Shown: positions 1 through 22,213 of the stretch, one piece after another
How positions within the stretch are numbered: the first letter of the stretch is position 1
Layout of the letters: each line of letters opens with the position of its first letter
Virus record (IMG/VR): IMGVR_UViG_2645728091_000008
Direction: 5' to 3' (one strand)
DNA: 22,213 nt
Origin: a virus
Taxonomy: Duplodnaviria > Heunggongvirae > Uroviricota > Caudoviricetes
The notes under the pieces: generated by a model
The model's input: only the letters and a program-made list of their open reading frames with translations
Told to the model about the DNA's origin: nothing
The model's database searches: none
Translations under genes and position numbers: made by a program

Positions 1-1244
1 CCAAACCTGACCTGCAAATGCTGAAACAGCCCCTGAACCTGTGTGGCATCTTTGGGGTCAAGAAAGGTCAGTCCGGTGATGAGCGCACCATCTGTACCCG
101 GGAACCAGCCATTGCTGTTTGTCTCAATAATGCTCGCCGGCCCCAGACGAAAACGGATTTGTGTCTCCCCCGGGTCGCCCTTCGGTCCCTGAGGTCCGGT
201 TGCCCCCACCGGGCCAGCCGCACCTGTTTCTCCTTTCGGTCCCTGTGGGCCTGCCGGGCCTGCCGCACCGGTATCTCCCTTTGGACCCTGTGGACCTGCA
301 TTTCCCGTCAGACCGGTCTCTCCCCGCTCTCCCATGTCACCTTTCGGCCCCTGCGGGCCTGCCGGACCAGCATCACCTGCCGGTCCCCGTTCGCCGGTTG
401 CCCCGACAGGGCCGGTGTCACCGCGCTCTCCCTTATCACCCTTCGGCCCCTGAGGACCCGCGGGCCCCTGTTCCCCCTTTGGCCCGGGAGGTCCCACCAC
501 GGTGGGGATTCGGTTTACGGCCTCTTCCGCCGCTATCCTGCTTTGTTCCGCTGACTGTGCGCTTTCTGCTGACTCCCGGGCTTTTTCTGTTGCGGTCGTT
601 GCATCCCTGGCTGCATTACCGGCTGCACTTTCTGCCGTCTTTCTTGACAATTCAGCTTCTGCTGCACTTTGTGATGACTCACTGGCTTTTTGAGCGGCCG
701 CAGAAGCCGAGGACGAGGACGCATCCTCTGACTGCTTTGCTGAGGCTGCACTTTCTGCCGCCTGCCGGGCTGACTCCGATGCCTCCCCTGCTGAAGTGTC
801 AGCATTTACTGCACTCTTTTCCGCCTGACCGGCTGATATACCCGCATTCCTCGCTGACGTCTCCGCCTCTCCGGCATTCTTCTTCGCCTCCTCAGCGTGA
901 CGCGCCACCTCTTCCACCATCAGTTCAAAACGGCGCAGTGCCTCCGGACGGGCATCATCCTCCGTCATGGCACCGAGAAAATCATTCAGCGTACCCGGCT
1001 GAGAATCTTCATACACGGTGATGGTCCCGGCATGTGACGGCGGGAACCCCTCCACCAACAGAATAACGCTGTACTGACCGTACTCAACGTCCATACTGTA
1101 ACGCCCGGCTTCATCCGGATTTTCTGAGGCCAGCGTGTTCACCACCACAGTGGTACTGTTACGTTTTGCTTTCAGCTGGATTGTGCAGTTCTGTACCGGT
1201 TTTCCTGTGCCGTCTTTCAGTACACCTGAAATCTTTACTGCCAT
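1..1244 (-). CDS. stf: side tail fibre protein (Stf-like), N-terminal 414 codons; 3' end runs off the window start
   Basis: ATG at 1244..1242 with GGGGTG upstream. Frame checked codon by codon and open down to position 3. Translation begins MAVKISGVLKDGTGKPVQNCTIQLKAKRN, matching recalled lambda Stf N-terminus. Contains a Ser/Ala/Glu-rich segment (approx 495..900) and about 37 Gly-X-Y collagen-like triplets (approx 165..494). Absent from the ORF track because there is no stop in the window. Confidence 0.85.
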   Translation of the reverse strand, partial: MAVKISGVLKDGTGKPVQNCTIQLKAKRNSTTVVVNTLASENPDEAGRYSMDVEYGQYSVILLVEGFPPSHAGTITVYEDSQPGTLNDFLGAMTEDDARPEALRRFELMVEEVARHAEEAKKNAGEAETSARNAGISAGQAEKSAVNADTSAGEASESARQAAESAASAKQSEDASSSSASAAAQKASESSQSAAEAELSRKTAESAAGNAARDATTATEKARESAESAQSAEQSRIAAEEAVNRIPTVVGPPGPKGEQGPAGPQGPKGDKGERGDTGPVGATGERGPAGDAGPAGPQGPKGDMGERGETGLTGNAGPQGPKGDTGAAGPAGPQGPKGETGAAGPVGATGPQGPKGDPGETQIRFRLGPASIIETNSNGWFPGTDGALITGLTFLDPKDATQVQGLFQHLQVRF

Positions 1245-1308: not shown

Positions 1309-1932
1309 TCAGAATTTATAGCCGACACCCACGATGAAACCGTCAGTGCGCCAGTCGCCACTGCCGGAACCTTCATAAGCAAGGTCAATAACCACCGTCT
1401 CTACGGGACTGAACTGAATCCCGGCATTCCAGGCCGGCGACAGATGACGCGCAGTATGACCATCACTGGCGGTGGTGGTCTCCTTCACATACCCCGGTTT
1501 CACTTCATCACGCCGGTAATCCTGAACACTGTCAGACCAGCGGGTGTACGCCATCCCGGCCATGCCATAGAGACTGACCCGCTCACTGAGCTGCCAGACA
1601 GGGCCGGCCATCAGACTGACATAACGACCGCGCAGGCTTTCATAATGGAAGGTATTTTCACCCGTCTTCATCGTGTCACTTTTCTTCACCGATGCATAAC
1701 TCAGCGCGACAATGCCGCCCAGGTGATCCGTGAACTCATAACGGTATTTCACATTAATCCCTTTTAAATCACCTGCACGCGCACCGGTACCGGACAATGC
1801 CGGTACGCCGCCCGGGTGAACCTGAGCATATCCCACGGAAAATGCACCGTGTCCGTTTTCAGCCTGTGCAGGAAAGGCAATTCCTGCCAGCAGGGTAGTA
1901 AACAATAATATCGTTGCGTATAAATGCCGCAT
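1309..1932 (-). CDS. lom: Ail/Lom-family outer membrane protein (207 aa)
   Basis: ORF 1309..1968; the track start at 1968 is GTG. I prefer ATG 1932 (MRHLYATILLFTTLLAGIAFPAQA signal peptide) with SD AGAGGT 5 nt upstream. Motifs GINVKYRYE, FHYESLRGRYVS and C-terminal AYEGSGSGDWRTDGFIVGVGYKF match recalled lambda Lom. Confidence 0.9.
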   Translation of the reverse strand: MRHLYATILLFTTLLAGIAFPAQAENGHGAFSVGYAQVHPGGVPALSGTGARAGDLKGINVKYRYEFTDHLGGIVALSYASVKKSDTMKTGENTFHYESLRGRYVSLMAGPVWQLSERVSLYGMAGMAYTRWSDSVQDYRRDEVKPGYVKETTTASDGHTARHLSPAWNAGIQFSPVETVVIDLAYEGSGSGDWRTDGFIVGVGYKF

Positions 1933-2000: not shown

Positions 2001-5000
2001 TCAGCTGATACTGATCCCTGCCGTGGATTTTTTCATGACCACAACCAGTAAATCACTGATGTACGTTGTCGGCGTCCAGTTGTTCGCACCGGCCGACGAC
2101 ACATTAAACGTCAGGGTGACATGACCCCGCCCTGCCGGCATATCTATCACCGATGAGAACACCCGGCTGACATCCGTTGCCGGTTCATGGAAAATCTCAA
2201 CCCCGTTCTTCAGCACCTGCAGCTTACAGGTGGAATACCAGTACGACTGCTGATTCGGGCTGTTGAAATTCTGGTGTTTCGTCCCGCGAAACAGCACCGG
2301 GGGAATGATAATCTGCCGGTCGAAGCCCTGGTCATCGTAAACTGTGACGGTTACCGTCCCGCTGGCATAACTGTTATTCCGGGGAAAGGCTTTCCCCACC
2401 GTCTTCACCAGGTCGCCTTCAATCTGGTTTGCAGACAGTTTCCCTCTGATGACACAGTTCTCGTTAATGGTGACATTATTGAGCGTGCCGGTATTCGCGG
2501 TAATTGCTCCGCTGATATCCGCGTTCCTGGCTGTCAGCTTCCCTTCCGGCGTCAGGGAAAACGTCGGGGGGTTGCCGGATGACGTGATACTCGCCGCAAA
2601 CAGACGCTTCAGGAACACGTCGTTCATGAACAGCTGATTCCCCTGCGCCACAAATAACGGAGTGCTGTTGCCGCTCTCCGGATTTATCATCGCGATACGG
2701 TCAGCCAGCAGCAGTATGTTGCTCAGTGGCTGGCCATCAGTATCCTCAATCCCTGCACCAATCCCGGCCACATAGGGAATGCCGTCTTTCGTTTTTTGAA
2801 CCTTCAGCATGTACAGCGCAGCCAGGTCATCATTTGTGTCCTTCTGCACGCGCTGTATCTGCTGAATGGTGGCGCTCTGGTCTTCCAGCGTTTTACTGAC
2901 CGTCTGTGTGATTTCATTGCGGGTTTCGGTGATGGTGGTCTTCATCTCCGCCATCTCATCCGCAAGCTGGCTGTTGTCTATCAGCTCCCATAGCCCCTGA
3001 GCCAGATGCAGTTTTCCTATTTTTTCCCGGAAAAATTCCAGATACCCTTCACCATCATTGCTGGGCTGCCCGCTGACTTCCACAAACGCAGATTTCCCCA
3101 CCAGGTTGACGCTGCGCACGTAAAACCAGAAATCCTTCCCGGGCTTAATGTGCGGGCCGGATACACTCCACTGACTGCCGGTCCCCAGATAACGGGCAGA
3201 GGTTTCCACCTGAGATGTGTCTGCGATTTTTGCCTCCGAAAACCAGAACTCAAACTGTACCGTCGGGTCATACACCGCAAGACGCGGGACCGCCGTTATC
3301 TGAAAATACCCCGGCGTCAGTTCAATGGTGGCGGGTTTTGCTGGCGCGTTAATCCGGAAGGTGGTGGTGGCCGGTTCGCCCTGCTGGCCATAACTGTTAA
3401 TTGCCCTGACTGTCAGGGTGTATTCCCCGAGCGGCAGACCACTGAAACGATGCTCTGTATCCGCAGTGATGGCGGTGGTCACCAGACGGCTGTCTTCTCC
3501 GCTTCCGTTGGTCAGGCGCAGACTGAAGCGCACACCCTTCACCACCCGCGGCGTGTCCCATTTCGCCTGTGCCAGATACTGACCGTCAGCCGCGCTCACC
3601 TCCACCGTCAGGTGCTGCACAGCCGGCGGGATGACGCTGTTCAGCGAACCGGACAGTGGCTCAAAGCTGGCCCCGTTATCCACAATGGCTTCTTTTTCCG
3701 GTACGTGCTGCACCGCCGTGATGGCAAAGGTGCCGTCCGTGTTTTCCCGGATGGAGACACAGCGGAACAGGCGACGACGCAGTGACGGCAGGGAGAGTCC
3801 CCATACACCGTATGTCTCCACACCATCAGGCAGGGTGCTGACCTGTATCCGGTCCGGCGCGGGGTGTGCAGTGATGGCCACGCTCACCGGCTTACCGCTG
3901 CCGTTAATCAGGTTCACCGTGGCGGCACCTGTCTCCGGCAGGGTCACCTCACGGTCCAGTGTCAGGGTGCGGCTGGCGGCATCGATGGACAGGATACGTC
4001 CGCCGGTCATGGTCCCGGCATAGTCGTTATCACAGATTTCAATAATGTCACCGGGTGTGTGACGCAGCCCCTGTGACCCGAGCGTGAAATCCACCGTCTG
4101 CGTTTCCAGCAGTCCGGTCTTTATCACCCACAGCCCGGCACGGTGGGCCTGACCGCGACTGGTGCAACCGAACGCATCCATCTTCAGCAGGTTGCGCCCG
4201 TAGCGCAGTATGGCTTCCGGGTCTTCCACCAGTTCCGTGGAGGTCTGCCAGCCGTTCTGCGGGTCGGTGTAATTCACCTCCACCGCCGTGTGGCGGTCCT
4301 TCAGGGCGCTGAAGCTGTAGCGAAACCCCACGCCGTTATCATCCACCACCACATCGCAGTTGGTGTACGGCCACACCACATCCGACGGGCGGTCCTGAAC
4401 GAACGTCAGCGTCTGGCCGTTCCATACCGGCATACAGCGCATCGCCGAGCAGAAATCACTGAGAACGTCCCACGCCTTACGCTGTTGTGACAGGTACGCA
4501 TTAAAGGTCATCCGCGGCTCTGTGCCCCCGAAACCATCCGGGACCGTCTGGTCGCAGTACTGCCCGATGGCATACAGCGCCCACTTGTCAACATCCGCCG
4601 CCACCAGACGTTTTCCCATGCCGTAGCGCGGGTGAGTCAGCATGTCCCACAGGCACCAGGCCGGGTTGTTGCTGTATGCCGGTTTCAGGCTGCCGTCCCA
4701 GATGCCGCTGTACGTGCGTTTTTCCGGGTCATAGTTTGACGGTACCTGGATGATGCGACCGCGGATATGGTAGTTCACCGTCATCTGCTGACCGCCAAAC
4801 TGCTCCGCATCCACCTGCAGCCCCACAATCGCCGTGTTCGGGTAGCACTGTTTCACATCGATGATTTCGGTGTATGACGACCAGAGCGTCTTATTCTGCA
4901 GCTGGTCCGAGGTGCTGTCCGCTGTCTCCCGGACCATCCGGATGTTAAAGGGCCGCTCAGGCAGATTCTCCAGAATCACCGACGCCAGGTACTGTGAGGT

Positions 5001-5477
5001 GGTCTTGCCGTTAATGGTGACATCCTTTTCCGTCACCCAGTTACCGTTACGCTGCAACTGAATCAGCAGTCGGACAGAAGAGGGATTACGGTCGCCCTTT
5101 GAGGTGGTCTCCAACAGTGACTGCACCCCGAAGGTGACCCGCAGGCGGTCAATGTTCGCGGATGTAATGGTGCGCGTTACCGGCTTTGCCTTCGTCACTT
5201 CCACGCCCAGTCCGGTTTCAGCTCCGGAGGACTCAAAGCCTTCCGGTGGTGTCTGCTCCTGCTCCCCGGCGCGCCAGACCGCGGTCACACCGTGTATCAC
5301 AGGATTGCCGTCCGTGTCCGTCAGCGGGGTTTTGTTCACCAGGATACTCTGCAGCCCCTTCACCGGGCCTTCTATCGGTCCCTCACCAATCGCATCAATC
5401 ACACTCATCATCTGCGTGGATTTGAGATTATCCTTCGCCTCTCGAGGCGTGTGCGCCCTGCCGCCACCTTTGCCCAT
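2001..5477 (-). CDS. J: tail tip / host specificity protein J (central tail fibre), 1158 aa
   Basis: ATG at 5477 with SD GAGAGGA upstream. N-terminus [37 protein letters not shown] is near-identical to recalled lambda J, and length is similar to lambda J (1132 aa). Confidence 0.95.
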
Positions 5478-5491
5478 AATGTTCCTCTCAA

Positions 5492-5546
5492 TTGGTATTA
5501 TTAATCGCAGTGATAGGATATTGCACAGCTATTGCGCGATATCATC
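5492..5546 (+). promoter_or_regulatory. candidate promoter region for sodC (AT-rich; weak -35 TTGGTA 5492..5497, -10-like TAGGAT 5514..5519 or TATCAT 5540..5545)
   Basis: AT-rich stretch between the divergently oriented J start and sodC. Hexamers are imperfect and spacing is not ideal, so this is only a region-level call. Confidence 0.25.
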
Positions 5547-5610
5547 AGAACGCTGTTTGTTACCCTGTAACCAGCAAGCTCAGTCTGTTAACGGAATTAA
5601 TGAGGGTTTT

Positions 5611-6138
5611 ATGAAATGTAAAATCATTGCTGCCATTGCCATGCTGACAGCAGCATCATGCGGATACGCAGCAGAACAGGAAGTCCCAATGAACCTTGTC
5701 AGTGCTGACGGAAAAGAAGTCAGCATTGGAAAAATAACCATTCAGGAGACCCCCTACGGTCTGCTGTTCACACCAGCCCTTCACTCTCTGTCTGAAGGCA
5801 TTCATGGTTTTCATGTGCACGAAAAAGGAAATTGCGCCCCGGCACTGAAAGACGGAAAACCGGTCGCAGCATTATCGGCTGGCGGTCACTTTGACCCGAA
5901 AAACACCGGCAAACATCTTGGCCCCTGGTCTCCGGATGGACACCTGGGCGACCTCCCTGCGCTGTTCGTGACGCATGACGGAAAAGCGAACTACCCGGTC
6001 CTGGCCCCGAGACTGAACTCATTAAAAGAGATTAAAGGGCGTTCTCTCATGCTTCATGCTGGCGGTGATAACCATCATGACCATCCGGAGCCCCTGGGCG
6101 GTGGTGGTGCGAGAATGGCCTGCGGCATCATTCAATAA
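5611..6138 (+). CDS. sodC: periplasmic Cu,Zn superoxide dismutase (175 aa), prophage moron
   Basis: ATG 5611 with SD GAGGG 4 nt upstream, TAA at 6136..6138. N-terminal signal peptide [17 protein letters not shown]. Cu/Zn-SOD signatures [33 protein letters not shown] and [14 protein letters not shown]. It is the C-terminal part of track ORF 5104..6138; the upstream extension is antisense to J and rejected. Confidence 0.95.
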
Positions 6139-6144
6139 TCAGTC

Positions 6145-6173
6145 AGGTAAGGGGCGGGCCCCTTACCTTTATT
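6145..6173 (+). terminator. intrinsic terminator of sodC
   Basis: Perfect 10-bp stem AGGTAAGGGG (6145..6154) / CCCCTTACCT (6159..6168), loop CGGG, followed by TTATT. Begins 7 nt after the sodC stop. No T-tract on the other strand. Confidence 0.75.
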
Positions 6174-6285
6174 CCTCAGGACGATAAATCCTTTCTCCCT
6201 GAAAAGAACGGCACATCCTCCCTCTCTGAGTTAATGTTTTTGTCGTGACATAAGAATAATTCCTTACACTCAATCTTCGTAACGC

Positions 6286-6323
6286 TCCCGCAGTTCCTGT
6301 CCGTGAGCACTGCGGGATTTTTT
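6286..6323 (+). terminator. second plus-strand terminator-like hairpin (9-bp stem, 14-nt loop, T6)
   Basis: TCCCGCAGT (6286..6294) pairs with ACTGCGGGA (6309..6317), followed by TTTTTT (6318..6323). Sits immediately beside the stop codon of I (6329..6331). The minus strand has no T-tract after the stem. Confidence 0.5.
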
Positions 6324-6328
6324 CGCTT

Positions 6329-7009
6329 TTATGCCTGCCGCCCGATAACCACGACCTTTCCGCCCCCGCCTTCATCACGGGTACTGATGTCCTGGGATAT
6401 ACGGCGGGAGCCAACCAGCATTTCACCGTAAGGCACCGGCATCGGGTTCCCCTGGGCAATCATGTTATCCAGCGAGGAAAAGTACGTGTTCTGTCTGCCG
6501 TTATCCGTGCTTTTGTACTCCGGTACTTTAGCCTTCGGGGCCAGCATCTGAGCCACACCACCCAGAATCATGCTGGCCCCCAGTGAAAACAGCATCGTGG
6601 TGGCAGAAAAACCACCGGCTGCCAGGGCTGAACCCCATAACGCCATTGATGCCCCGGCAGTGAAGAAAGAGCCCACGATGGCTGCCGCCCCCAGCACAAT
6701 CTGCAGTCCACCCTTTCCGGCCCCGGCCAGTCGCGGCACAATGTGGATGACCGTTCCCTCACCCAGCTGTTCGTGAAGACGGGCGTACACCGCCTCCGGT
6801 GCCGTGTCCTCACCGCGAATACGTATCTGGTACCAGCCTTCGTTCATCTGACGGCGGAATCCCGGCATCTGCATCGACAGGGCACGGATAGCTTCCGCTG
6901 CCGTGTTCACATACAGGCTGAGGCGGCGGCCAAATCGTTGTAAATCCCCGTGAAGGCAGATACGTGCCAGTGGCGGTGACGCCAGGCTGAATGCGTTCGT
7001 CGTTGCCAT
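6329..7009 (-). CDS. I: tail assembly protein I (226 aa)
   Basis: ATG at 7009. MATTNAFSLASPPLARICLHGDLQRFGRR and the Gly/Ala-rich middle match recalled lambda I. Overlaps the 3' end of K by about 100 nt, as K and I do in lambda. Confidence 0.9.
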   Translation of the reverse strand: MATTNAFSLASPPLARICLHGDLQRFGRRLSLYVNTAAEAIRALSMQMPGFRRQMNEGWYQIRIRGEDTAPEAVYARLHEQLGEGTVIHIVPRLAGAGKGGLQIVLGAAAIVGSFFTAGASMALWGSALAAGGFSATTMLFSLGASMILGGVAQMLAPKAKVPEYKSTDNGRQNTYFSSLDNMIAQGNPMPVPYGEMLVGSRRISQDISTRDEGGGGKVVVIGRQA

Positions 7010-7651
7010 TTTTCGGAATACCTCTCCCGTTTACTCAGTTGTTCAGGCAGATGGTGAAGCAGCTCACCGTTGCCGCAGTATATGGCGGCATGATTGGCCA
7101 CCGATGCGCCAAAGCAGCACAGCAGGATATCGCCAGGCTGTGCGGAAGGCAGGGAAATCCTGTAAAAACCAGTCGCCTCCATATTGTCCAGGTACAGGTT
7201 CTGACCGTTGCGCCACCAGTCATCCTCACGCTCAAAATCCGGCATATCAATTCCCGCCAGATGGTAGGCATCCCGGAACAGCGTGTAACAGTCCGTCACC
7301 CCGTGCTCAAAGCGCCGTCCTGTCAGATGTGGCACACAGCGGAATTTATGAATTTCCCCCCCGGCAGACCAGCCACCAGGACAGTGCACTTTTTATCTGC
7401 AGCCGCCGGTCGGCCTCGCTCAGCCAGGGCAGACCACCGGGATGACTGTGGACCAGTGCCACAATCTCCCCCTGCATCTCTGCCCGCAGCCAGTCTTCCG
7501 GTGCAATACGAAAATACGCCTCCGGCTCTGCAGAGATATTCACACAAGGGATATACCGCTCCCCCTCCGGCGTTCTCACCACGAAGCCGCACGACTCCGC
7601 AGGCACACACCGCCGGGCATGCGCCAGAATCGCTGATTCTGTCTGTGTCAT
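6907..7651 (-). pseudogene. K: tail tip assembly protein K (MPN/JAMM N-domain plus NlpC/P60 C-domain), reading frame broken at a G7 tract
   Basis: N-terminal ORF 7346..7651 (ATG 7651; HSHPGGLPWLSEADR JAMM motif) ends at TAA 7346..7348. C-terminal ORF 6907..7389 (DCYTLFRDAY, HAAIYCG) is in the adjacent frame. The frames can only be joined within 7349..7392, which contains the C7 run at 7356..7362. Removing one C gives a continuous ...WWLVCRGEIHKFRCVPHLTGRRFEHG... Confidence 0.75.
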
Positions 7652-14221: not shown

Positions 14222-14588
14222 AAACAGCCATTCCACCATCAACGTGTGTTTTTGCATCTGAGGACATAATCAGAATCACCCGACCAACATCCGCAAGCTC
14301 AACGGATTCCCCCGTTTCACCATCAACGCCACAGAGATGGAGGCAGGTCAGAACTCTGATGCGCGTTAACGCGCCGGATGTTTCCTCACGAACATCATGA
14401 GCCGCGTTTTCCCTCTCCCGGATATCCATATTCATAACCTGTACATCATCGCCGGATGACTGCATTTCCTCTTCCCATTCTGCCACCCGCTGCGCTATCT
14501 CTGCGGCACTCCCGGATATATCCGGCTCACGCCCCAGAATCAGGGCCAGTTCATCAAGCCGTTTCAGATTTTGCTCTTTCGTTGCCAT
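14214..14588 (-). CDS. FI: DNA packaging / head assembly protein FI (124 aa)
   Basis: Track start 14636 is GTG. I prefer ATG 14588 (MATKEQNLKRLDELALILG) with SD GGGGGA 5 nt upstream. Position between E and FII as in lambda; sequence similarity is moderate. Confidence 0.8.
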   Translation of the reverse strand: MATKEQNLKRLDELALILGREPDISGSAAEIAQRVAEWEEEMQSSGDDVQVMNMDIRERENAAHDVREETSGALTRIRVLTCLHLCGVDGETGESVELADVGRVILIMSSDAKTHVDGGMAVYA

Positions 14589-14600
14589 ATCATCCCCCTG

Positions 14601-14631
14601 TGAAAAAAGACACGGGGGCATTTCGCCCCCG
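14601..14631 (-). promoter_or_regulatory. E-FI intergenic GC-rich stem-loop followed by a U-rich tract
   Basis: Minus strand: CGGGGGC (14631..14625) pairs with GCCCCCG (14619..14613), 5-nt loop, then UGUCUUUUUU (14612..14603). Sits directly upstream of the FI SD. Confidence 0.45.
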
Positions 14632-14639
14632 CTCACGGA

Positions 14640-15668
14640 TTATTTCACCTGTACCACCACAAACTCATCCGGGTCCGGCAACACCATCAGCGGCGCGGAC
14701 TGCGTCATGGTAAATTCACGGGCGGGATCCCCTACCGTCAGCCAGTGTTTCGGATAACGGGAAGAGGCCACCACACCTTCGGACAACGCCTGCGCATCCT
14801 GAATGGCACCATAGCAACGAATGCCCTCTGCTGCCGTATTCCCCAGGACCAGCGAACCCTCAGGCAGATAACGTTTTTCGGTACCGTCCTCTGCCACATA
14901 AGACGTTTTTGCCACCACAATGGCCAGATCGCCGTAATACCCTTTGAAGGACACCACCGCGCCCAGGTCTTTCACCGCTGTTTCGAGTTGCGAATTAGAG
15001 CCGCGACGGGTATCCAGTTTTTCGCGGAACAATTTAAAGCCATTCAGCAGACGCCAGACGGTACCGTCCATAATGGCAATATTCACAAGACCGCTGGCCT
15101 GGTCGCAGTAGAGGTCAAGATCATGTGTAGGATCGAACGTGTCACGATCCTGTTTTGACCACTCCTTACCACTACCCTGAGTGATGTTATTCTTCGTCGA
15201 CCTGCCAAAATCGACCTCAATTTTCTCGAACTGGTCTCCTTCCATCGTGTATTTGCCATACAGCACGGCATTCACCGCCTGCATTTCTTCCACCTGGACA
15301 ATGGCGTGCTCTTCCTGTTTGAGGTTATCAGTGATGATACGCAGACGACGGTAGGCCGGGTCGTTCAGCTGAGCCGGATCTTCACCGGGAAGACGCTCAA
15401 CCGCCTGCTGGTAATTAAATTCGTGTTTCGGCTTGACGTAGCCCGGACGTAACACGCGGGTTTCACCACCACGATGACGCAGCACTTTTCCTTCAACAAC
15501 CGGGGAAACATAGGCCGCCACCGGCGTTTTTCCGGTAATTTTGTCCAGCATCACCTCTTCGGTATGGAAATTCACCGTACGGCGGAAAAACAGCTCCAGA
15601 AACAGCGCACGAAATTTCACTTTTTGTTCGGTATAACCGAGTAACTGGCGGGTCGTAAACAATCCCAT
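14640..15668 (-). CDS. E: major capsid protein E (342 aa)
   Basis: ATG 15668 with SD AAGGAA. Long matches to recalled lambda E (GYVKPKHE, QVEEMQAVNAVLYGKYTM, KEKLDTRRGSNS, RYPKHWLTVGDPAREFTMTQSAPLM). Confidence 0.95.
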   Translation of the reverse strand: MGLFTTRQLLGYTEQKVKFRALFLELFFRRTVNFHTEEVMLDKITGKTPVAAYVSPVVEGKVLRHRGGETRVLRPGYVKPKHEFNYQQAVERLPGEDPAQLNDPAYRRLRIITDNLKQEEHAIVQVEEMQAVNAVLYGKYTMEGDQFEKIEVDFGRSTKNNITQGSGKEWSKQDRDTFDPTHDLDLYCDQASGLVNIAIMDGTVWRLLNGFKLFREKLDTRRGSNSQLETAVKDLGAVVSFKGYYGDLAIVVAKTSYVAEDGTEKRYLPEGSLVLGNTAAEGIRCYGAIQDAQALSEGVVASSRYPKHWLTVGDPAREFTMTQSAPLMVLPDPDEFVVVQVK

Positions 15669-19400: not shown

Positions 19401-21312
19401 TCACTCCTCCGGACAGCTTCGCTGCCAGTTCTTTCAGGGTTGGCCGGGTCGTCTCTTCTTCCCGGGATTTTGCCAGTACAGCCAGATCAAGCTGCCAGCG
19501 TTGCACGGACACACGTAATGCCGCGTAGGCATACACCAGGCAGTCCAGCGCTTCGTTACGCCGCTTTTTGTTATCCCACAGCAGACGCATCTTTCCTTTT
19601 TCCCACTTCTCCACCAGCTCTTCCGCCACCAGTTGCTGCGCCTCTGTCTGCGAAAAAATCTCCGGATCATCAGGAAAACGGATGGCATACGACGTGGCTT
19701 CATCCGCAGGCGAGGGATCGGCTTTCATACGGGCATAGAGAATTTCTTTTGCGGTGTCCGTTCCCACTTCACACAGATACACGCCCCGCTGATTGCGGGT
19801 TTTTGGCATGGTGATCACCGGCTTGCCATAGACAGATGCGCCTTTTACCGGCAGCACCCGGAAAACACCGTGTTTTTTTGATCTCTGATAAACAATTTCA
19901 CCATCGATCCCCCCGGTGTCCCAGCAGACACGGGAAATAGTCATTTCGGTGCCATCCGCATGGCGGTATTTTTTGTTGATCGCCGCATCCACACGTAACA
20001 GCGTCTCTTCCTCATCAGGACGCCCCATAATGATGATTTTATCCACCAGAAAGGCTTCCTCTCCCGGAGCCCATCCCCAGACATACATCTCAAAACGGTT
20101 TCGCTGCGAGTCAATGCCCGCCGTCAGATAAACCACCCGGGCAGGTACCGCCGCCGTGTAACGCACCACCTTATCCATCAGTACCTGGTGATCGAGTTTT
20201 TCGCCCACGGCTTCTTCCCAGGTCTCGCCCAGCGTGGTGTTCACAAAGGTTTTCAGGCCGTTGGGATCTTTCAGTGCATCCAGCCAGTCATAGACTATCT
20301 GTACCCAGGTGGTAAACGGACTGTACGCCGTCCAGATATGGAACGTGATGGAGCGCGGCGGCGGAATTTCATCACCCCGGGCGCTGAAAAACGTCAGACC
20401 GTCACGGGTCCACATGCCCGTGTTTTCACAGATCCACCGCCCGTTGCTCTGGTCCAGTTCAGACTGATGGATCACGCAGCCATGATGTTCACAGAGGTAG
20501 AAAACACTTTCGGGGCTGTCCTTCTCCCATTTAAGCCCAAAAGGCGTGGACTCATCGCCAAATTTCAGATACTGCGCCTCCCCACAGTGCGGGCAGGGCA
20601 CATAAAAACGCATAAAATGCGCCGACTCGTTAGCGGCTTTTTCGATCTGGCAGGTGCCTTTGATTTTAGGCGTCGAGCCGCGAATGGATTTTGGCCACAC
20701 CGACCCCTCAATACGCTTATCCCCCAGCAGGGTTGGCGAGCCCTCTTTTTCGACATCCGGCTCGAACGAGGAAAGTTCGTCATAGCAGACCACGTCCACG
20801 GATTTTTCACGGTAGTTTTTGGCGGCAGCGCCGCCCAGGCACCAGAAACCGACGCCCGATGAAAAGCGTTTCAGCGTGAGAGTATTGTCACGATGTTTAC
20901 GACCCAGCCATGGGGAAAGGTCTTTCAGGCATGGCACGTTCCGAATCGTCGCCTCCACGTGAGACTTCATAAAATCTTCAGCGGCAGAATCCGTGGGCTG
21001 AAAAAGCAGACTGTTTCGGGATTTATGCTCAATAAAATACCCGCCCACCCCCAGCAACATCTTTGTATAGCCAACACGGGCAGATTTAATCAGGTTAACC
21101 GTGCGAACCTGGTCGTTACCCATACAGTTCATAATGGCGATCTGGAATGGCAGCGTTTTCCATTCTCCCTCACCATATGAAGATTCTTTAGGCAGATAAT
21201 AATTTTGATCAGCCCATTCAACTGCCGTCATTGGTACAACCCTGACCAGAGGCTGCAGCGCAACCGAAACGGCAGCCATCATATTATTCAGTTGTTGCTC
21301 TGATATATTCAT
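19384..21312 (-). CDS. A: terminase large subunit A (642 aa)
   Basis: Track start 21369 is TTG. ATG 21312 gives MNISEQQ..., aligning with the lambda A start MNIS. TAVEWAD.NYYLPKES, KNYREKSVDV, DKRIEGSVWPKSIRGSTPK, FVNTTLGETWE and KKRRNEALDC match. Overlaps nu1 by 29 nt as in lambda. Confidence 0.95.
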   Translation of the reverse strand: MNISEQQLNNMMAAVSVALQPLVRVVPMTAVEWADQNYYLPKESSYGEGEWKTLPFQIAIMNCMGNDQVRTVNLIKSARVGYTKMLLGVGGYFIEHKSRNSLLFQPTDSAAEDFMKSHVEATIRNVPCLKDLSPWLGRKHRDNTLTLKRFSSGVGFWCLGGAAAKNYREKSVDVVCYDELSSFEPDVEKEGSPTLLGDKRIEGSVWPKSIRGSTPKIKGTCQIEKAANESAHFMRFYVPCPHCGEAQYLKFGDESTPFGLKWEKDSPESVFYLCEHHGCVIHQSELDQSNGRWICENTGMWTRDGLTFFSARGDEIPPPRSITFHIWTAYSPFTTWVQIVYDWLDALKDPNGLKTFVNTTLGETWEEAVGEKLDHQVLMDKVVRYTAAVPARVVYLTAGIDSQRNRFEMYVWGWAPGEEAFLVDKIIIMGRPDEEETLLRVDAAINKKYRHADGTEMTISRVCWDTGGIDGEIVYQRSKKHGVFRVLPVKGASVYGKPVITMPKTRNQRGVYLCEVGTDTAKEILYARMKADPSPADEATSYAIRFPDDPEIFSQTEAQQLVAEELVEKWEKGKMRLLWDNKKRRNEALDCLVYAYAALRVSVQRWQLDLAVLAKSREEETTRPTLKELAAKLSGGVNGYSR

Positions 21313-21793
21313 CGAGTAAATCCGGTAATTTATCCCCTGCCCGCGCACACTGATTTGCCCCCTTAGCAATAAGGGTTTTCAGATGGTCAAGATGGCGCGG
21401 TGTTAAATCAGGAAACTGTCGCTGCATGGATAAAGGGATGGAATCAAGCGTACTGGATAACGCCATTGCCAGCTTACTGAGGGCAAAAATACAGAACCCG
21501 GTGTCAATAAGTTTTCCTTTTGACACCTCATTTTTTAACTGCTGTGTAACAGCCTGTTCTGCTGTCAGTTCCCATCTGGCAATAAGCAATTTCTCCTCAT
21601 AGTCGTCTTCGCTATCGCCATCAGGCACATCGTTTTTACTTCTCCTCAGATACGATATGTAAAAATCGCGCCAGGCATCCAGATCCAGTTGCCCTCGCTT
21701 ATTCGATATCGGGGCACCCGGCAATTTCTGCAATCTGCGAAGCTGGTGATCGGTCAGACTTAAATGCCTGGCAACTTCAGTCTGCGTAGCCAC
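21284..21793 (-). CDS. nu1: terminase small subunit Nu1 (169 aa)
   Basis: Start codon is GTG (21793..21791) preceded by GAGGTGAGGA, immediately after an in-frame stop. C-terminal half (CIFALSKLA...IPLSMQRQFPDL..RH.D.LK..I...LLDEYI) matches recalled lambda Nu1; the N-terminal DNA-binding part is divergent. Confidence 0.85.
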   Translation of the reverse strand: MATQTEVARHLSLTDHQLRRLQKLPGAPISNKRGQLDLDAWRDFYISYLRRSKNDVPDGDSEDDYEEKLLIARWELTAEQAVTQQLKNEVSKGKLIDTGFCIFALSKLAMALSSTLDSIPLSMQRQFPDLTPRHLDHLKTLIAKGANQCARAGDKLPDLLDEYIRATTE

Positions 21794-21832
21794 TCCTCAC
21801 CTCGCAAAAACTCTCACCTCACAATCACAACA

Positions 21833-21946
21833 AAACCGGTCATGTCCGGTTTACATGTCTGTTTTTTGTTCATGTCCGGTTCACAGAAGACCTGTTTTTA
21901 TATTTTTCATATAGTTAACTTGAAGAGAAACCGGACATGGATCCCG
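21833..21946. promoter_or_regulatory. cosB-like terminase binding region: three CATGTCCGGTT elements (two direct, one inverted) flanking an AT-rich IHF-like segment
   Basis: CATGTCCGGTT at 21841..21851 and 21871..21881, and inverted AACCGGACATG at 21929..21939. AT-rich 21890..21925 between them. Location between cosN and nu1 equals the lambda R3-I1-R2-R1 layout, but the element sequence differs from lambda R sites. Confidence 0.6.
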
Positions 21947-21976
21947 GAAAATTTTCATAAATAGCGAAAACCCGCG

Positions 21977-21988
21977 AGGTCGCCGCCC
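21977..21988 (-). other. cosN 12-nt cohesive-end sequence GGGCGGCGACCT
   Basis: Plus strand AGGTCGCCGCCC is the reverse complement of the lambda cohesive end. The flanking about 45 bp toward nu1 is near-identical to the recalled lambda left end (CGCGGGTTTTCGCTATTTATGAAAATTTTCCGG). Confidence 0.85.
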
Positions 21989-22114
21989 CGTAACCTGTCG
22001 GATCGCCGGAAAGGACCCACGAAAATGATAATAATTATCATCTACATGAGGTTTATCACGACATGTGTGTACGCCATCAAACCACGAGAAATAATCAATT
22101 ATTACGCAGGTATC
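21989..22114 (-). other. phage genome right-end segment including the expected cosQ region
   Basis: Reverse complement is near-identical to the recalled last ~125 bp of the lambda right end (...GGTCCTTTCCGG.GATCCGACAGGTTACG next to cosN). Similarity stops abruptly at 22114. Confidence 0.6.
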
Positions 22115-22213
22115 TGAACCGCCCCGGGAATCCTGGAGACTAAACTCCCTGAGAAAGAGGTAAACAGGATGACTAAAAATACTCGTTTTTCCCCCGAAGT
22201 CCGTCAGAGGGCG
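22115..22213 (+). mobile_element. left end of an IS3-family insertion sequence (IS629/IS1203-like), truncated by the window
   Basis: Starts TGAACCGCCCCGGGAATCCTGGAGACTAAACTCCCTGAGAAAGAGG, which I recall as the IS629-type left inverted repeat, followed by the orfA start. Lambda-like sequence breaks exactly here. Confidence 0.75.
22169..22213 (+). CDS. IS3-family transposase OrfA, first 15 codons only
   Basis: ATG 22169 after AGAGG SD. MTKNTRFSPEVRQRA matches the recalled N-terminus of IS629/IS1203 OrfA. Confidence 0.75.
   Translation, partial: MTKNTRFSPEVRQRA

Follow-up and report, generated by a model that had tools for sequence, protein, structure and literature searches.

The sodC-F1 moron between tail genes I and J of a lambdoid prophage and the predicted promoter-less small-RNA gene copy beside it

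Introduction

The locus studied here raises the question of what a plus-strand gene for a Cu,Zn superoxide dismutase (SOD) is doing between tail genes I and J of a lambdoid prophage, and how much of the DNA between those two genes actually belongs to it. It lies in a 22,213-nt stretch of viral DNA (Caudoviricetes; IMG/VR record IMGVR_UViG_2645728091_000008), hereafter called the window and analysed over its full length. An earlier note, made from the sequence of the window alone, had treated the entire I–J gap as a moron, that is, as phage-borne cargo. Prophage-borne sodC of EHEC has been annotated since the O157 genomes of 2001, and its biochemistry and genetics followed in 2008. We identify the gap, with a probability of roughly 93%, as a moron already known, sodC-F1 of lambdoid prophages of the E. 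coli O157 type, acting by the mechanism set out in the Discussion. Gene and cassette are already known and well studied, and this interpretation, though supported, adds nothing new as a finding. What is fresh is a single point: the gap ends in 105 bases that make up a copy, predicted to be promoter-less, of a small-RNA gene already described.

Results

An intact Cu,Zn superoxide dismutase gene lies between I and J

Exact ORF coordinates place the I–J gap at 5478..6328, which is 851 bp and agrees with the earlier estimate of about 850 bp (Table 1). The minus strand carries all large structural ORFs of the window, as had been stated for the structural genes in general, and I and K overlap by 103 nt, the same as in lambda. 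The RefSeq annotation of I is a shorter form of 582 bp. The remark that I and J are adjacent in lambda was mistaken, comparison of the junctions showing them to be 60 bp apart.

Table 1. Features of the I–J interval and its two neighbouring tail genes, with window coordinates.
Feature	Position	Strand	Basis or detail
J, tail tip / host-specificity protein, 1158 aa	2001..5477	-	ORF; seven gpJ Pfam domains
AT-rich sodC leader / putative promoter region	5478..5610	+	GC 0.398; promoter activity suggested by the reporter fusion in PMC2569942
J ribosome-binding site GAGAGGAA	~5482..5489, read on the minus strand	-	within cassette-specific DNA
Shine-Dalgarno GAGGG of sodC	5602..5606	+	4 nt before ATG
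sodC-F1, periplasmic, partly lipid-anchored Cu,Zn superoxide dismutase precursor, 175 aa	5611..6138	+	Pfam Sod_Cu; PDB relatives; PMC2569942
T1, intrinsic terminator of sodC	6145..6174	+	stem AGGTAAGGGG/CCCCTTACCT, 4-nt loop, tail TTTATT
Cassette tail	6175..6223	+	alignment with the cM8a-type arrangement
PasB / EcOnc22-24 homolog, body and terminator, predicted promoter-less	6238..6323	+	homology, position, strand
Window-type sRNA body segment TAAGAATAATTCCTTACACTCAATCTTCGTAACGC	6251..6285	+	
T2 terminator	stem 6286..6317, T6 run 6318..6323	+	-16.1 kcal/mol; ends 5 nt before the I stop codon
I, tail assembly protein, 226 aa from the ATG at 7009	6329..7009	-	Lambda_tail_I match, 6.4e-16

The claim of a complete plus-strand Cu,Zn-SOD gene in this gap was borne out. 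The ORF is intact, and its product matches Pfam family Sod_Cu (PF00080) at 3.9e-32 (111.9 bits, cut-off 28.9), an alignment that takes in positions 3-133 of the 133 in the profile. Among solved structures, those closest to it are of periplasmic SodCs from bacteria, at about 60% identity, with PDB chains at 1e-56 to 1e-62, and a PROSITE-type motif is present. When the protein was aligned with human SOD1, SodCI and SodCIII, all metal ligands, on which the earlier note had made activity depend, were found in invariant columns: H68, H70, H93 and H149 for copper, and H93, H102, H111 and D114 for zinc. For human SOD1 we take the corresponding residues to be H46, H48, H63 and H120 for copper and H63, H71, H80 and D83 for zinc. 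The catalytic arginine R168 and C171 are likewise invariant with human R143 and C146. The intrasubunit disulfide is C75-C171; Cys75 is conserved in the bacterial sequences and occupies another MAFFT column than human C57. In the translation, residues 1-20 read as a signal peptide followed by AEQ, with an AASC lipobox at Cys17.

The published description of the same sequence gives an SPase I site at 20/21, the AASC lipobox and dual localisation (D'Orazio et al. 2008, BMC Microbiol 8:166, PMC2569942). In that study SodC-F1 was a dimeric enzyme with an activity of 19380 U/mg, and SodC-F protein was found in both soluble and membrane fractions. It accumulated in log-phase, stationary-phase and anaerobic cultures without induction and was relatively enriched in intracellular bacteria, and sodC mutants were more sensitive to H2O2 (PMC2569942).

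An apparent +1 frameshift of K near 7362, where the window has a run of G7 and its relatives G6, agrees with the suggestion of a partly defective prophage. The K frameshift says nothing on sodC itself. In the closest full-length genome match, FI is frameshifted and neighbouring effector genes are degraded. Such lesions would favour seeing sodC as a remnant that is decaying or no longer functional within a defective prophage, but the ORF is intact with every catalytic residue in place, the sequence is identical to a protein published as active and expressed (PMC2569942), and 542 genomes have the cassette at 99% identity or more. We therefore give a decaying sodC next to no chance and regard that reading as already effectively refuted.

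The interval is identical to one in an O157:H7 prophage

The interval is identical at 851 of 851 positions to the I–sodC–J interval of prophage Sp10 in E. coli O157:H7 Sakai (ECs_1989). The sole difference from an EDL933 copy is T5945C, which corresponds to nt 335 and changes L112 to P, the published difference between F1 and F2 (D'Orazio et al. 2008, BMC Microbiol 8:166, PMC2569942). The window protein carries Leu112, as does the assayed SodC-F1, and judged from this residue and the T at nt 335 the allele is sodC-F1. The protein is also 100% identical to the SodC of an Stx2a phage. Among the O157:H7 copies of sodC-F1/F2 (Sp10 in Sakai; the 'CP-933R/CP-933V' copies in EDL933), Sp10 shows no difference from the window within the interval, and the window shares with these copies the order I / sodC (opposite strand) / J / lom / tail fibre. 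The surroundings differ slightly, with 99.1% identity between the surrounding prophage and its best full-length match and a frameshift of K in the window. In related genomes, T3SS effector genes follow the tail fibre.

The cassette occurs at 99% identity or higher in 542 of the 5426 complete E. coli genomes (~10%), with up to five copies per genome, whereas a 1.2-kb query that included the flanks was at least 99% identical in only 184 records. Copies of the cassette in E. coli number about 720. We also scanned GTDB species representatives for a donor. Among the matches listed (Serratia, Pseudomonas, Pragia and others), only chromosomal SodCs were found, at 47-69% identity and without informative prophage context, and no donor is named.

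Only part of the gap is cargo

The sodC cargo cassette is about 744 bp, 5480..6223, and for this part the moron claim stands. It fails for the remaining 105 bp, 6224..6328, which are a backbone spacer common to sodC-less phages and not cargo. At the other end the J start codon abuts the cassette, and in sodC-less phages homology to the window ends exactly at the J ATG.

The composition of sodC sets it apart from the tail genes, as the earlier note had expected. Compared with 180 in-frame 528-nt windows of J, I, L, M and H, its GC3 of 0.506 lies well under their 0.692 ± 0.050 (z = -3.7) and below their minimum of 0.602, and the log-likelihood of its synonymous codons under tail-gene usage gives z = -3.1. 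The same junction is found without sodC in phage JLK-2012, in PP6 of E2348/69, in Sp11, Sp14 and Sp15 of Sakai, and in about 149 Stx-phage records, and sodC has its own terminator, T1. Absence from this junction in close relatives together with foreign composition supports the claim that the prophage is a cargo carrier, and the view of sodC as an opposite-strand, compositionally foreign, self-contained cargo gene between I and J of a lambdoid prophage is supported. In the nearest sodC-less relatives the I–J spacer measures 239-240 bp, and the junction holds about 135 bp of different sequence instead of an empty site; the insertion is thus not strictly demonstrable.

The gene sodCIII (STM0924) of Fels-1 in Salmonella provides the closest positional parallel. 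It sits between gpI and gpJ homologs on the opposite strand, is of similar size and is 60.5% identical at the amino acid level, although its non-coding flanks are not homologous to those of the window, no PasB-like spacer is present, and the gene ends 53 bp from the I stop. Since sodC occupies the same site in Fels-1 (60% amino acid identity) and in the divergent prophage of strain cM8a (80% nucleotide identity), the arrangement may be old and spread by cassette exchange. One could go further and suppose that a group of lambdoid tail modules in enterobacteria descends from an I–sodC–J ancestor and that sodC-less phages lost or replaced the gene. The shared site and orientation would agree with this, as would the different DNA in sodC-less junctions and the first ~20 bp past the J start (CATAAT..GTTCCCTCT), where the window resembles Fels-1 and not JLK-2012. 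However, in GC3 and codon usage sodC clearly does not match the tail genes, the I–J spacer of lambda is just 60 bp long, the cassettes of E. coli and Fels-1 otherwise have non-coding flanks that cannot be aligned, and sequence varies far less within the cassette than in its flanks, as expected of a unit moving between prophages by recombination. An ancestral I–sodC–J arrangement is therefore, in our judgement, rather unlikely, and we keep to sodC as acquired cargo.

The earlier note had pointed to Gifsy-2 of Salmonella, whose sodCI is the classic virulence-associated example and is regulated by PhoPQ. As a phage-borne gene the example is apt: sodCI (STM1044) encodes a dimeric periplasmic Cu,Zn-SOD, lies on the opposite strand in the tail module and shares 58.8% amino acid identity with the window protein. 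As a positional counterpart it is not, for it sits elsewhere, with gpM and a lom homolog on one side and gpL on the other, the I–J position being that of Fels-1. Lambdoid morons, of which Juhala et al. reportedly gave an account in 2000 with lambda lom/bor and HK97 gp15 among the examples, resemble the window sodC in being extra DNA between genes that neighbour each other in relatives, with their own terminator, deviant composition and prophage expression. Classic morons often run in the direction of the late operon. The window sodC differs from them in being antiparallel and embedded with a remnant of an sRNA gene.

Leader, promoter candidates and terminator of sodC

The description of sodC as having its own AT-rich leader, Shine-Dalgarno sequence and terminator proved accurate. 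The 133 bp upstream of the gene have a GC content of 0.398 against 0.56 for the window, GAGGG precedes the start codon, and T1, with a 10-bp GC-rich stem at 6145..6168 and -17.4 kcal/mol, starts 7 nt past the sodC stop. The T1 stem is kept in the 80%-identical cM8a variant, in which the loop differs. T1 has an imperfect U-tract (UUUAUU), and a fraction of transcripts may therefore run on into the sRNA body downstream.

A consensus scan found no sigma-70-like site at the scan threshold within 5200..6600. The best candidate under a position weight matrix, TTGGTA (5492..5497)-16-TAGGAT (5514..5519) with an upstream TG, was equalled or beaten by 10% of shuffles. A leader block at ~5529..5561, CTATTGCGCGATATCATCAGAACGCTGTTTGT, is 100% conserved in the cassette variant with 80% identity elsewhere. 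The palindrome GTTACcctGTAAC (5563..5575) was considered as an operator and dropped because it is not conserved in the cM8a variant, and a PhoP-box reading of TGTTTG..CTGTAA did not fit in spacing, judged by eye only. Published work shows sodC-F to be expressed in the lysogen, and a promoter-lacZ fusion of the 299 bp upstream of the gene, which correspond to 5312..5610 of the window and to about 1964202..1964500 on the minus strand of NC_002695.2, was used to test regulation, with RpoS independence reported as data not shown (PMC2569942).

No Rfam family matched the whole window at gathering thresholds. An E-value scan of 5350..6450 placed STnc400 over the sodC 3' end and T1 with 23 bits against a gathering score of 80; we rejected it as a chance match, since the Gifsy-2, Fels-1 and JLK-2012 loci also lack a match at gathering thresholds. 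PasB and EcOnc22, which bear on the end of the gap, are evidently not Rfam families.

The backbone spacer holds a predicted promoter-less member of the PasB/EcOnc22 family

PasB of EPEC (E2348/69 PP6) and EcOnc22, EcOnc23 and EcOnc24 of Sakai (Sp15, Sp14 and Sp11, respectively) are Hfq-dependent sRNAs of ~83-85 nt, encoded at the I-proximal end of the I–J spacer on the strand opposite the tail genes. The backbone spacer of the window carries a homolog with the same position and strand. Over aligned positions it is 82% identical to PasB and 79% to the Sakai EcOnc22 type, with a local alignment covering 6245..6323, and it shares the terminator stem CCCGCAG/CTGCGGG and the U-run. In an EcOnc22 probe a 23-nt core matches exactly. 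The full-length probe gave no match at up to three mismatches because the printed oligo differs by small indels. A limited literature search turned up no mention of the homology between PasB (EPEC) and EcOnc22-24 (EHEC) or of their link to sodC-F. The anti-sRNAs AgvB and AsxR were also considered as the conserved spacer and rejected, being located downstream of PR' and not in the tail module.

What the window copy lacks is the DNA upstream of the sRNA body. Promoter-like elements TTCACA-16-TATAAT (11/12) in cM8a and E2348/69 and TTCACA-16-AATAAT (10/12) in JLK-2012 precede the body, with the qualification that TATAAT stands 22 nt upstream of the PasB 5' end as annotated and that the Sakai variant is a weak match only. 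Relative to the cM8a-type arrangement, the cassette tail of the window has a deletion of ~46 bp with its junction near 6208..6210 and an 8-nt substitution at 6215..6222, ATCCTCCC in place of TTATAATT. The deletion and the substitution together remove the -35 and -10 that are present upstream of the sRNA body in other prophages, and neither promoter scan nor alignments found, upstream of the body in the window, the TATAAT/AATAAT element that most variants pair with TTCACA. We read the widespread O157-type arrangement as one in which the sodC-F cassette displaced the promoter of a resident sRNA gene in the I–J spacer, the divergent cM8a prophage having kept sodC together with an sRNA promoter that is intact.

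An alternative is that the segment is transcribed by read-through of T1 or processed from a long sodC 3' UTR ending at T2, which would bring it under sodC-F control. The sRNA body would then be a 3'-UTR or read-through product that couples an Hfq-dependent regulator to SOD expression. T1 has only a UUUAUU tail and T2 a clean U6 tract, the sRNA body and T2 are 100% conserved across hundreds of sodC-linked copies, and the window body is about as close to the validated sRNAs (79-82%) as PasB and EcOnc22 are to each other (86%). Yet T1 is a strong hairpin, and the conservation may merely reflect recent spread of the whole block. In addition, Table S2 of the Hfq-CRAC study has peaks where the copies bear a promoter, in Sp11, Sp14 and Sp15, and no EcOnc peak at the sodC-linked copy in Sp10, at 1963484..1963590 of NC_002695.2, which counts as negative evidence only (Tree et al. 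2014). The Hfq peaks that do lie in Sp4 and Sp10 of Sakai (EcOnc35 and EcOnc11) map to the lysis and terminase regions, not near sodC. On balance an active segment appears quite improbable, and its coupling to SOD expression is just as doubtful. The copy is most likely silent, and at most it might serve as a back-up terminator shielding I, K and L from antisense read-through.

Discussion

The features of the interval fit the following mechanism, in which the steps from export to function are experimental for the same protein in D'Orazio et al. 2008 and are represented in the window by sequence features. The foreign cassette of ~744 bp sits on the strand opposite the Q-antiterminated late operon and so would not be driven by late transcription. 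In the lysogen, sodC would be transcribed from its own RpoS-independent promoter, for which the basis is the literature, no site being locatable by sequence, and translated from the GAGGG Shine-Dalgarno sequence. The transcript would end at T1, with T2 as a second plus-strand terminator just before the end of I. SodC would be exported by its Sec signal peptide, cleaved after residue 20 or lipid-modified at Cys17, form the C75-C171 disulfide, bind copper and zinc through six histidines and one aspartate, and dimerise. The enzyme would then dismutate periplasmic superoxide and protect the lysogen from exogenous oxidative stress. The last 105 bp are the normal I–J filler, a body and terminator of the PasB/EcOnc22 family whose promoter region has been deleted or replaced.

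In practical terms the locus is useful as an example, now with correct limits, of a moron that runs antiparallel to the tail operon in which it lies. The analysis adds a little by telling the cargo (744 bp) apart from the backbone (105 bp), and further by assigning the backbone part to a family of validated Hfq-dependent sRNAs (PasB = EcOnc22-24). An sRNA copy that is linked to sodC and lacks its promoter region bears on differences in sRNA repertoire between otherwise similar prophages.

sodC between tail genes I and J

A plus-strand Cu,Zn superoxide dismutase gene occupies the gap between tail genes I and J, and, as the earlier note had described from the sequence alone, it is accompanied by an AT-rich leader (133 bp, GC 0.398), a Shine-Dalgarno sequence (GAGGG, 4 bases ahead of the ATG) and a terminator (T1: a 10-bp GC-rich hairpin followed by TTTATT, 7 bases past the stop codon, -17.4 kcal/mol), all visible in the window sequence. 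The boundaries given there for the gap were exact, set by the flanking ORFs, and J, I, K, L, M and H all lie on the minus strand, as it had stated for the structural genes. Among solved structures, the sodC product matches bacterial periplasmic SodCs at ~1e-62.

Features of the I-J region in the window and of comparison sites (positions in the named sequence)
Feature	Coordinates	Strand	Description
J-like ORF	2001..5477	minus	1158 aa; seven gpJ domains
I-J gap	5478..6328		851 bp; houses sodC ORF
sodC ORF	5611..6138	plus	175 aa; Pfam Sod_Cu E = 3.9e-32
T1, sodC terminator	6145..6174	plus
T2, second terminator	stem 6286..6317 + T6 run	plus	-16.1 kcal/mol; within last 105 bp of gap
I-like ORF	6329..7009	minus	Lambda_tail_I match
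K-, L-, M-, H-like genes		minus	upstream of I and J
Spacer hairpin, L002 (JLK-2012)	1744..1721	minus	sodC-less spacer
Spacer hairpin, L089 (E2348/69 PP6)	1631..1654		sodC-less spacer
PasB, L089	1462..1544
EcOnc probe core, L091 (Sakai Sp15)	1175..1197
EcOnc probe core, L092	1606..1628
EcOnc probe core, L093	1656..1678

With 180 in-frame 528-nt windows from J, I, L, M and H as reference, the break in GC and codon usage that the earlier note had proposed as a check on the moron interpretation is present: GC3 of sodC is 0.506 against 0.692 +/- 0.050 for the tail genes (z = -3.7, under the tail-gene minimum), and its synonymous codon choice is atypical against tail-gene usage (z = -3.1). The Cu/Zn ligands, whose absence would have questioned activity, are likewise in place. 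When the window protein is aligned to human SOD1, Salmonella SodCI and SodCIII and a divergent E. coli variant, the columns of human H46, H48, H63, H71, H80, D83, H120, R143 and C146 are invariant, corresponding to window SodC H68, H70, H93, H102, H111, D114, H149, R168 and C171.

A sodC promoter is not demonstrable from the sequence, since a consensus scan across 5200..6600 found no sigma-70-like site and the best candidate of a PWM scan (TTGGTA-16-TAGGAT with an upstream TG, 5492..5519) was equalled by 10% of shuffles. A leader block of ~32 nt (5529..5561, CTATTGCGCGATATCATCAGAACGCTGTTTGT) is 100% conserved across both cassette lineages, within a leader otherwise only ~75-80% identical, and can be made out in part in Fels-1; no consensus is recognisable in it, and it is a candidate for a regulatory or promoter element. 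At the other end of the gene, an Rfam match to the Salmonella sRNA STnc400 (6102..6178, sodC 3' end plus terminator) scored 23 bits against a gathering threshold of 80 (E = 0.08) and was judged a chance match.

Elsewhere in the window, the long I ORF, whose ATG is at 7009, shares 103 nt with K, the same overlap as lambda has (K 14276..14875, I 14773..15444), while RefSeq relatives are annotated with a shorter, 582-bp I. K (C40 peptidase/tail tip assembly, 6907..7651) is 745 bp long against 744 bp in two relatives; an extra G in a G-run (G7 vs G6 in minus-strand reading, near 7356..7362) splits it by frameshift into ORFs 7346..7651 and 6907..7389, which is either inactivating, making the prophage defective, or a homopolymer sequencing error. 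GC is lowest at the terminase-proximal end (~20800..22213, 0.45-0.47 vs 0.56 overall).

The gene is sodC-F1

The I-J interval is identical at 851/851 positions to I-sodC-J in the E. coli O157:H7 Sakai prophage Sp10 (ECs_1987, ECs_1989, ECs_1990). One EDL933 copy of the cassette shows a single difference, T5945C, which is sodC nt 335 (Leu112 to Pro). As this is the difference given by D'Orazio et al. 2008 (PMC2569942) between sodC-F1 (Leu) and sodC-F2 (Pro), the window allele is sodC-F1. According to that study, prophage sodC is expressed in exponential phase, in stationary phase and anaerobically; promoter-lacZ fusions carrying 299 bp ahead of the ATG were RpoS-independent (data not shown there), and the abundance of SodC-F relative to chromosomal SodC goes up in intracellular bacteria. 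SodC-F is a dimer that exceeds chromosomal SodC in activity (19380 vs 6290 U/mg) and in stability; its signal peptide can be cleaved by signal peptidase I (20/21) or follow the lipoprotein route at the AASC lipobox, the protein is found in both periplasm and membrane, and sodC deletion mutants show raised H2O2 sensitivity (PMC2569942). The mechanism proposed for this gene rests on those experiments together with the sequence features verified in the window.

Cassette boundary, distribution and history

Compared with the related sodC-less phage JLK-2012, homology reaches the J start codon, restarts at ~6224 and runs on across the end of I, so the cargo comprises ~744 bp, 5480..6223. The earlier note had given the whole gap as the moron; the sodC block stands, and the last 105 bp of the gap, shared with JLK-2012, are backbone sequence. 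The J ribosome-binding site falls within cassette-specific DNA.

Of 5426 complete E. coli genomes, 547 contain the 744-bp cassette (724 places, up to five per genome), including O157:H7, O55:H7, O145, O103:H2 and O111, and in 542 of these carriers its identity is 99% or higher; with flanks included, only 184 records reach at least 99%. The cassette varies less than the surrounding tail genes do. Two Stx2a-converting phages in the phage collection carry it, and ~149 other Stx or lambdoid records match the flanks alone. With the foreign composition and the gene's own terminator, this bears out the moron interpretation in substance.

Salmonella Fels-1 sodCIII (60.5% amino acid identity) likewise lies between I and J, opposite to them in strand. 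Gifsy-2 sodCI (58.8%), which the earlier note had offered as the analogue, is a functional parallel but not a positional one, lying with gpM and a lom homolog on one side and gpL on the other. Nor are I and J adjacent in lambda, as had been claimed: the end of I (15444) and the start of J (15505) are 60 bp apart. The nearest non-prophage relatives among the matches listed are chromosomal SodCs (47-69% identity). The unrelated Acetobacter phage phiAO1 (L006, 3483..6186) has a Cu,Zn-SOD clustered with a peroxiredoxin and a sulfurtransferase beside the terminase gene, which looks like antioxidant cargo.

A recent simple insertion fits the sodC history less well than foreign DNA acquired long ago at this junction, with cassettes later exchanged among lambdoid prophages. 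The sodC-less junctions carry ~135 bp of other sequence rather than a clean empty site, and sodC is at the I-J site also in Fels-1 and in E. coli cM8a, whose cassette is 80% identical. On the tail-gene strand the sodC-less spacers contain a 9-bp GC-rich hairpin with a T-rich tail, which looks like an intrinsic terminator within the late operon; the cassette takes its place in sodC-bearing prophages. In cM8a (second cassette lineage, L087 2495..3398, full sRNA promoter kept), the K neighbour, expected to be L, carries the annotation of a P22 AR C-terminal-domain protein.

A promoter-less sRNA gene in the I-J spacer

PasB is an 83-nt Hfq-dependent sRNA of EPEC E2348/69 (NC_011601 1466343..1466261, minus; PMC8550237 table S6). 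In prophage PP6 it lies opposite the tail genes within the I-J spacer of 240 bp, ending 6 nt short of the I stop, and window positions 6245..6323 align with its nucleotides 8-82. EcOnc22, EcOnc23 and EcOnc24, from the Sakai Hfq-CRAC study, are ~85 nt on Northern blots, are destabilised without Hfq, and were assigned to Sp15, Sp14 and Sp11, respectively, on the strand opposite the tail genes (PMC4104026 Table S2). Their shared probe matches, through its 23-nt core, the I-J spacers of these prophages at the PasB-homologous position. The published peaks lie ~130 bp below the probe match in the current Sakai record, an offset that we attribute to the older sequence version used in 2014, as it is the same in all three prophages. 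The three variant sRNA bodies (window, PasB and EcOnc22 type) are 79-86% identical pairwise, and EcOnc22/23/24 (Tree et al. 2014) and PasB (Pearl Mizrahi et al. 2021) agree at 86% of aligned positions; they are homologous, both antisense to the tail operon in the I-J spacer. The accessible text and table S6 of the PasB papers mention neither EcOnc22, nor the equivalence of EcOnc22/23/24 with PasB, nor sodC.

Ahead of the sRNA body stands TTCACA-16-TATAAT (11/12) in PP6 and cM8a, and TTCACA-16-AATAAT (10/12) in JLK-2012. Relative to cM8a, whose cassette sits at the same site, the window has lost the TTCACA box and spacer through a ~46-bp deletion, and its -10 region is replaced by an 8-nt swap (TTATAATT to ATCCTCCC, 6215..6222). 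The three promoter-bearing Sakai copies gave EcOnc peaks, and PMC4104026 Table S2 lists none at the Sp10 copy; with the loss of promoter elements, this leads us to read 6238..6323 as a silenced sRNA gene. RNA from the body could still arise by read-through or 3'-UTR derivation, given the imperfect T1 U-tract (TTTATT). As promoter of the family the upstream elements are putative: the annotated PasB 5' end (RNA-seq) lies 22 nt downstream of TATAAT, and the Sakai variant upstream element is a weak consensus match only. The window-type spacer was found 1013 times, in 648 genomes; set against the 724 cassette places, most copies are thus promoter-less and sodC-linked. T2 may still serve as a back-up insulator for sodC transcription.

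The sodC cargo gene is therefore real, rightly read in substance by the earlier note, and already known in detail. The points worth passing on are the cassette boundary, the positional parallel with Fels-1, and the last 105 bp of the gap, which is a promoter-less member of the PasB/EcOnc22-24 family.
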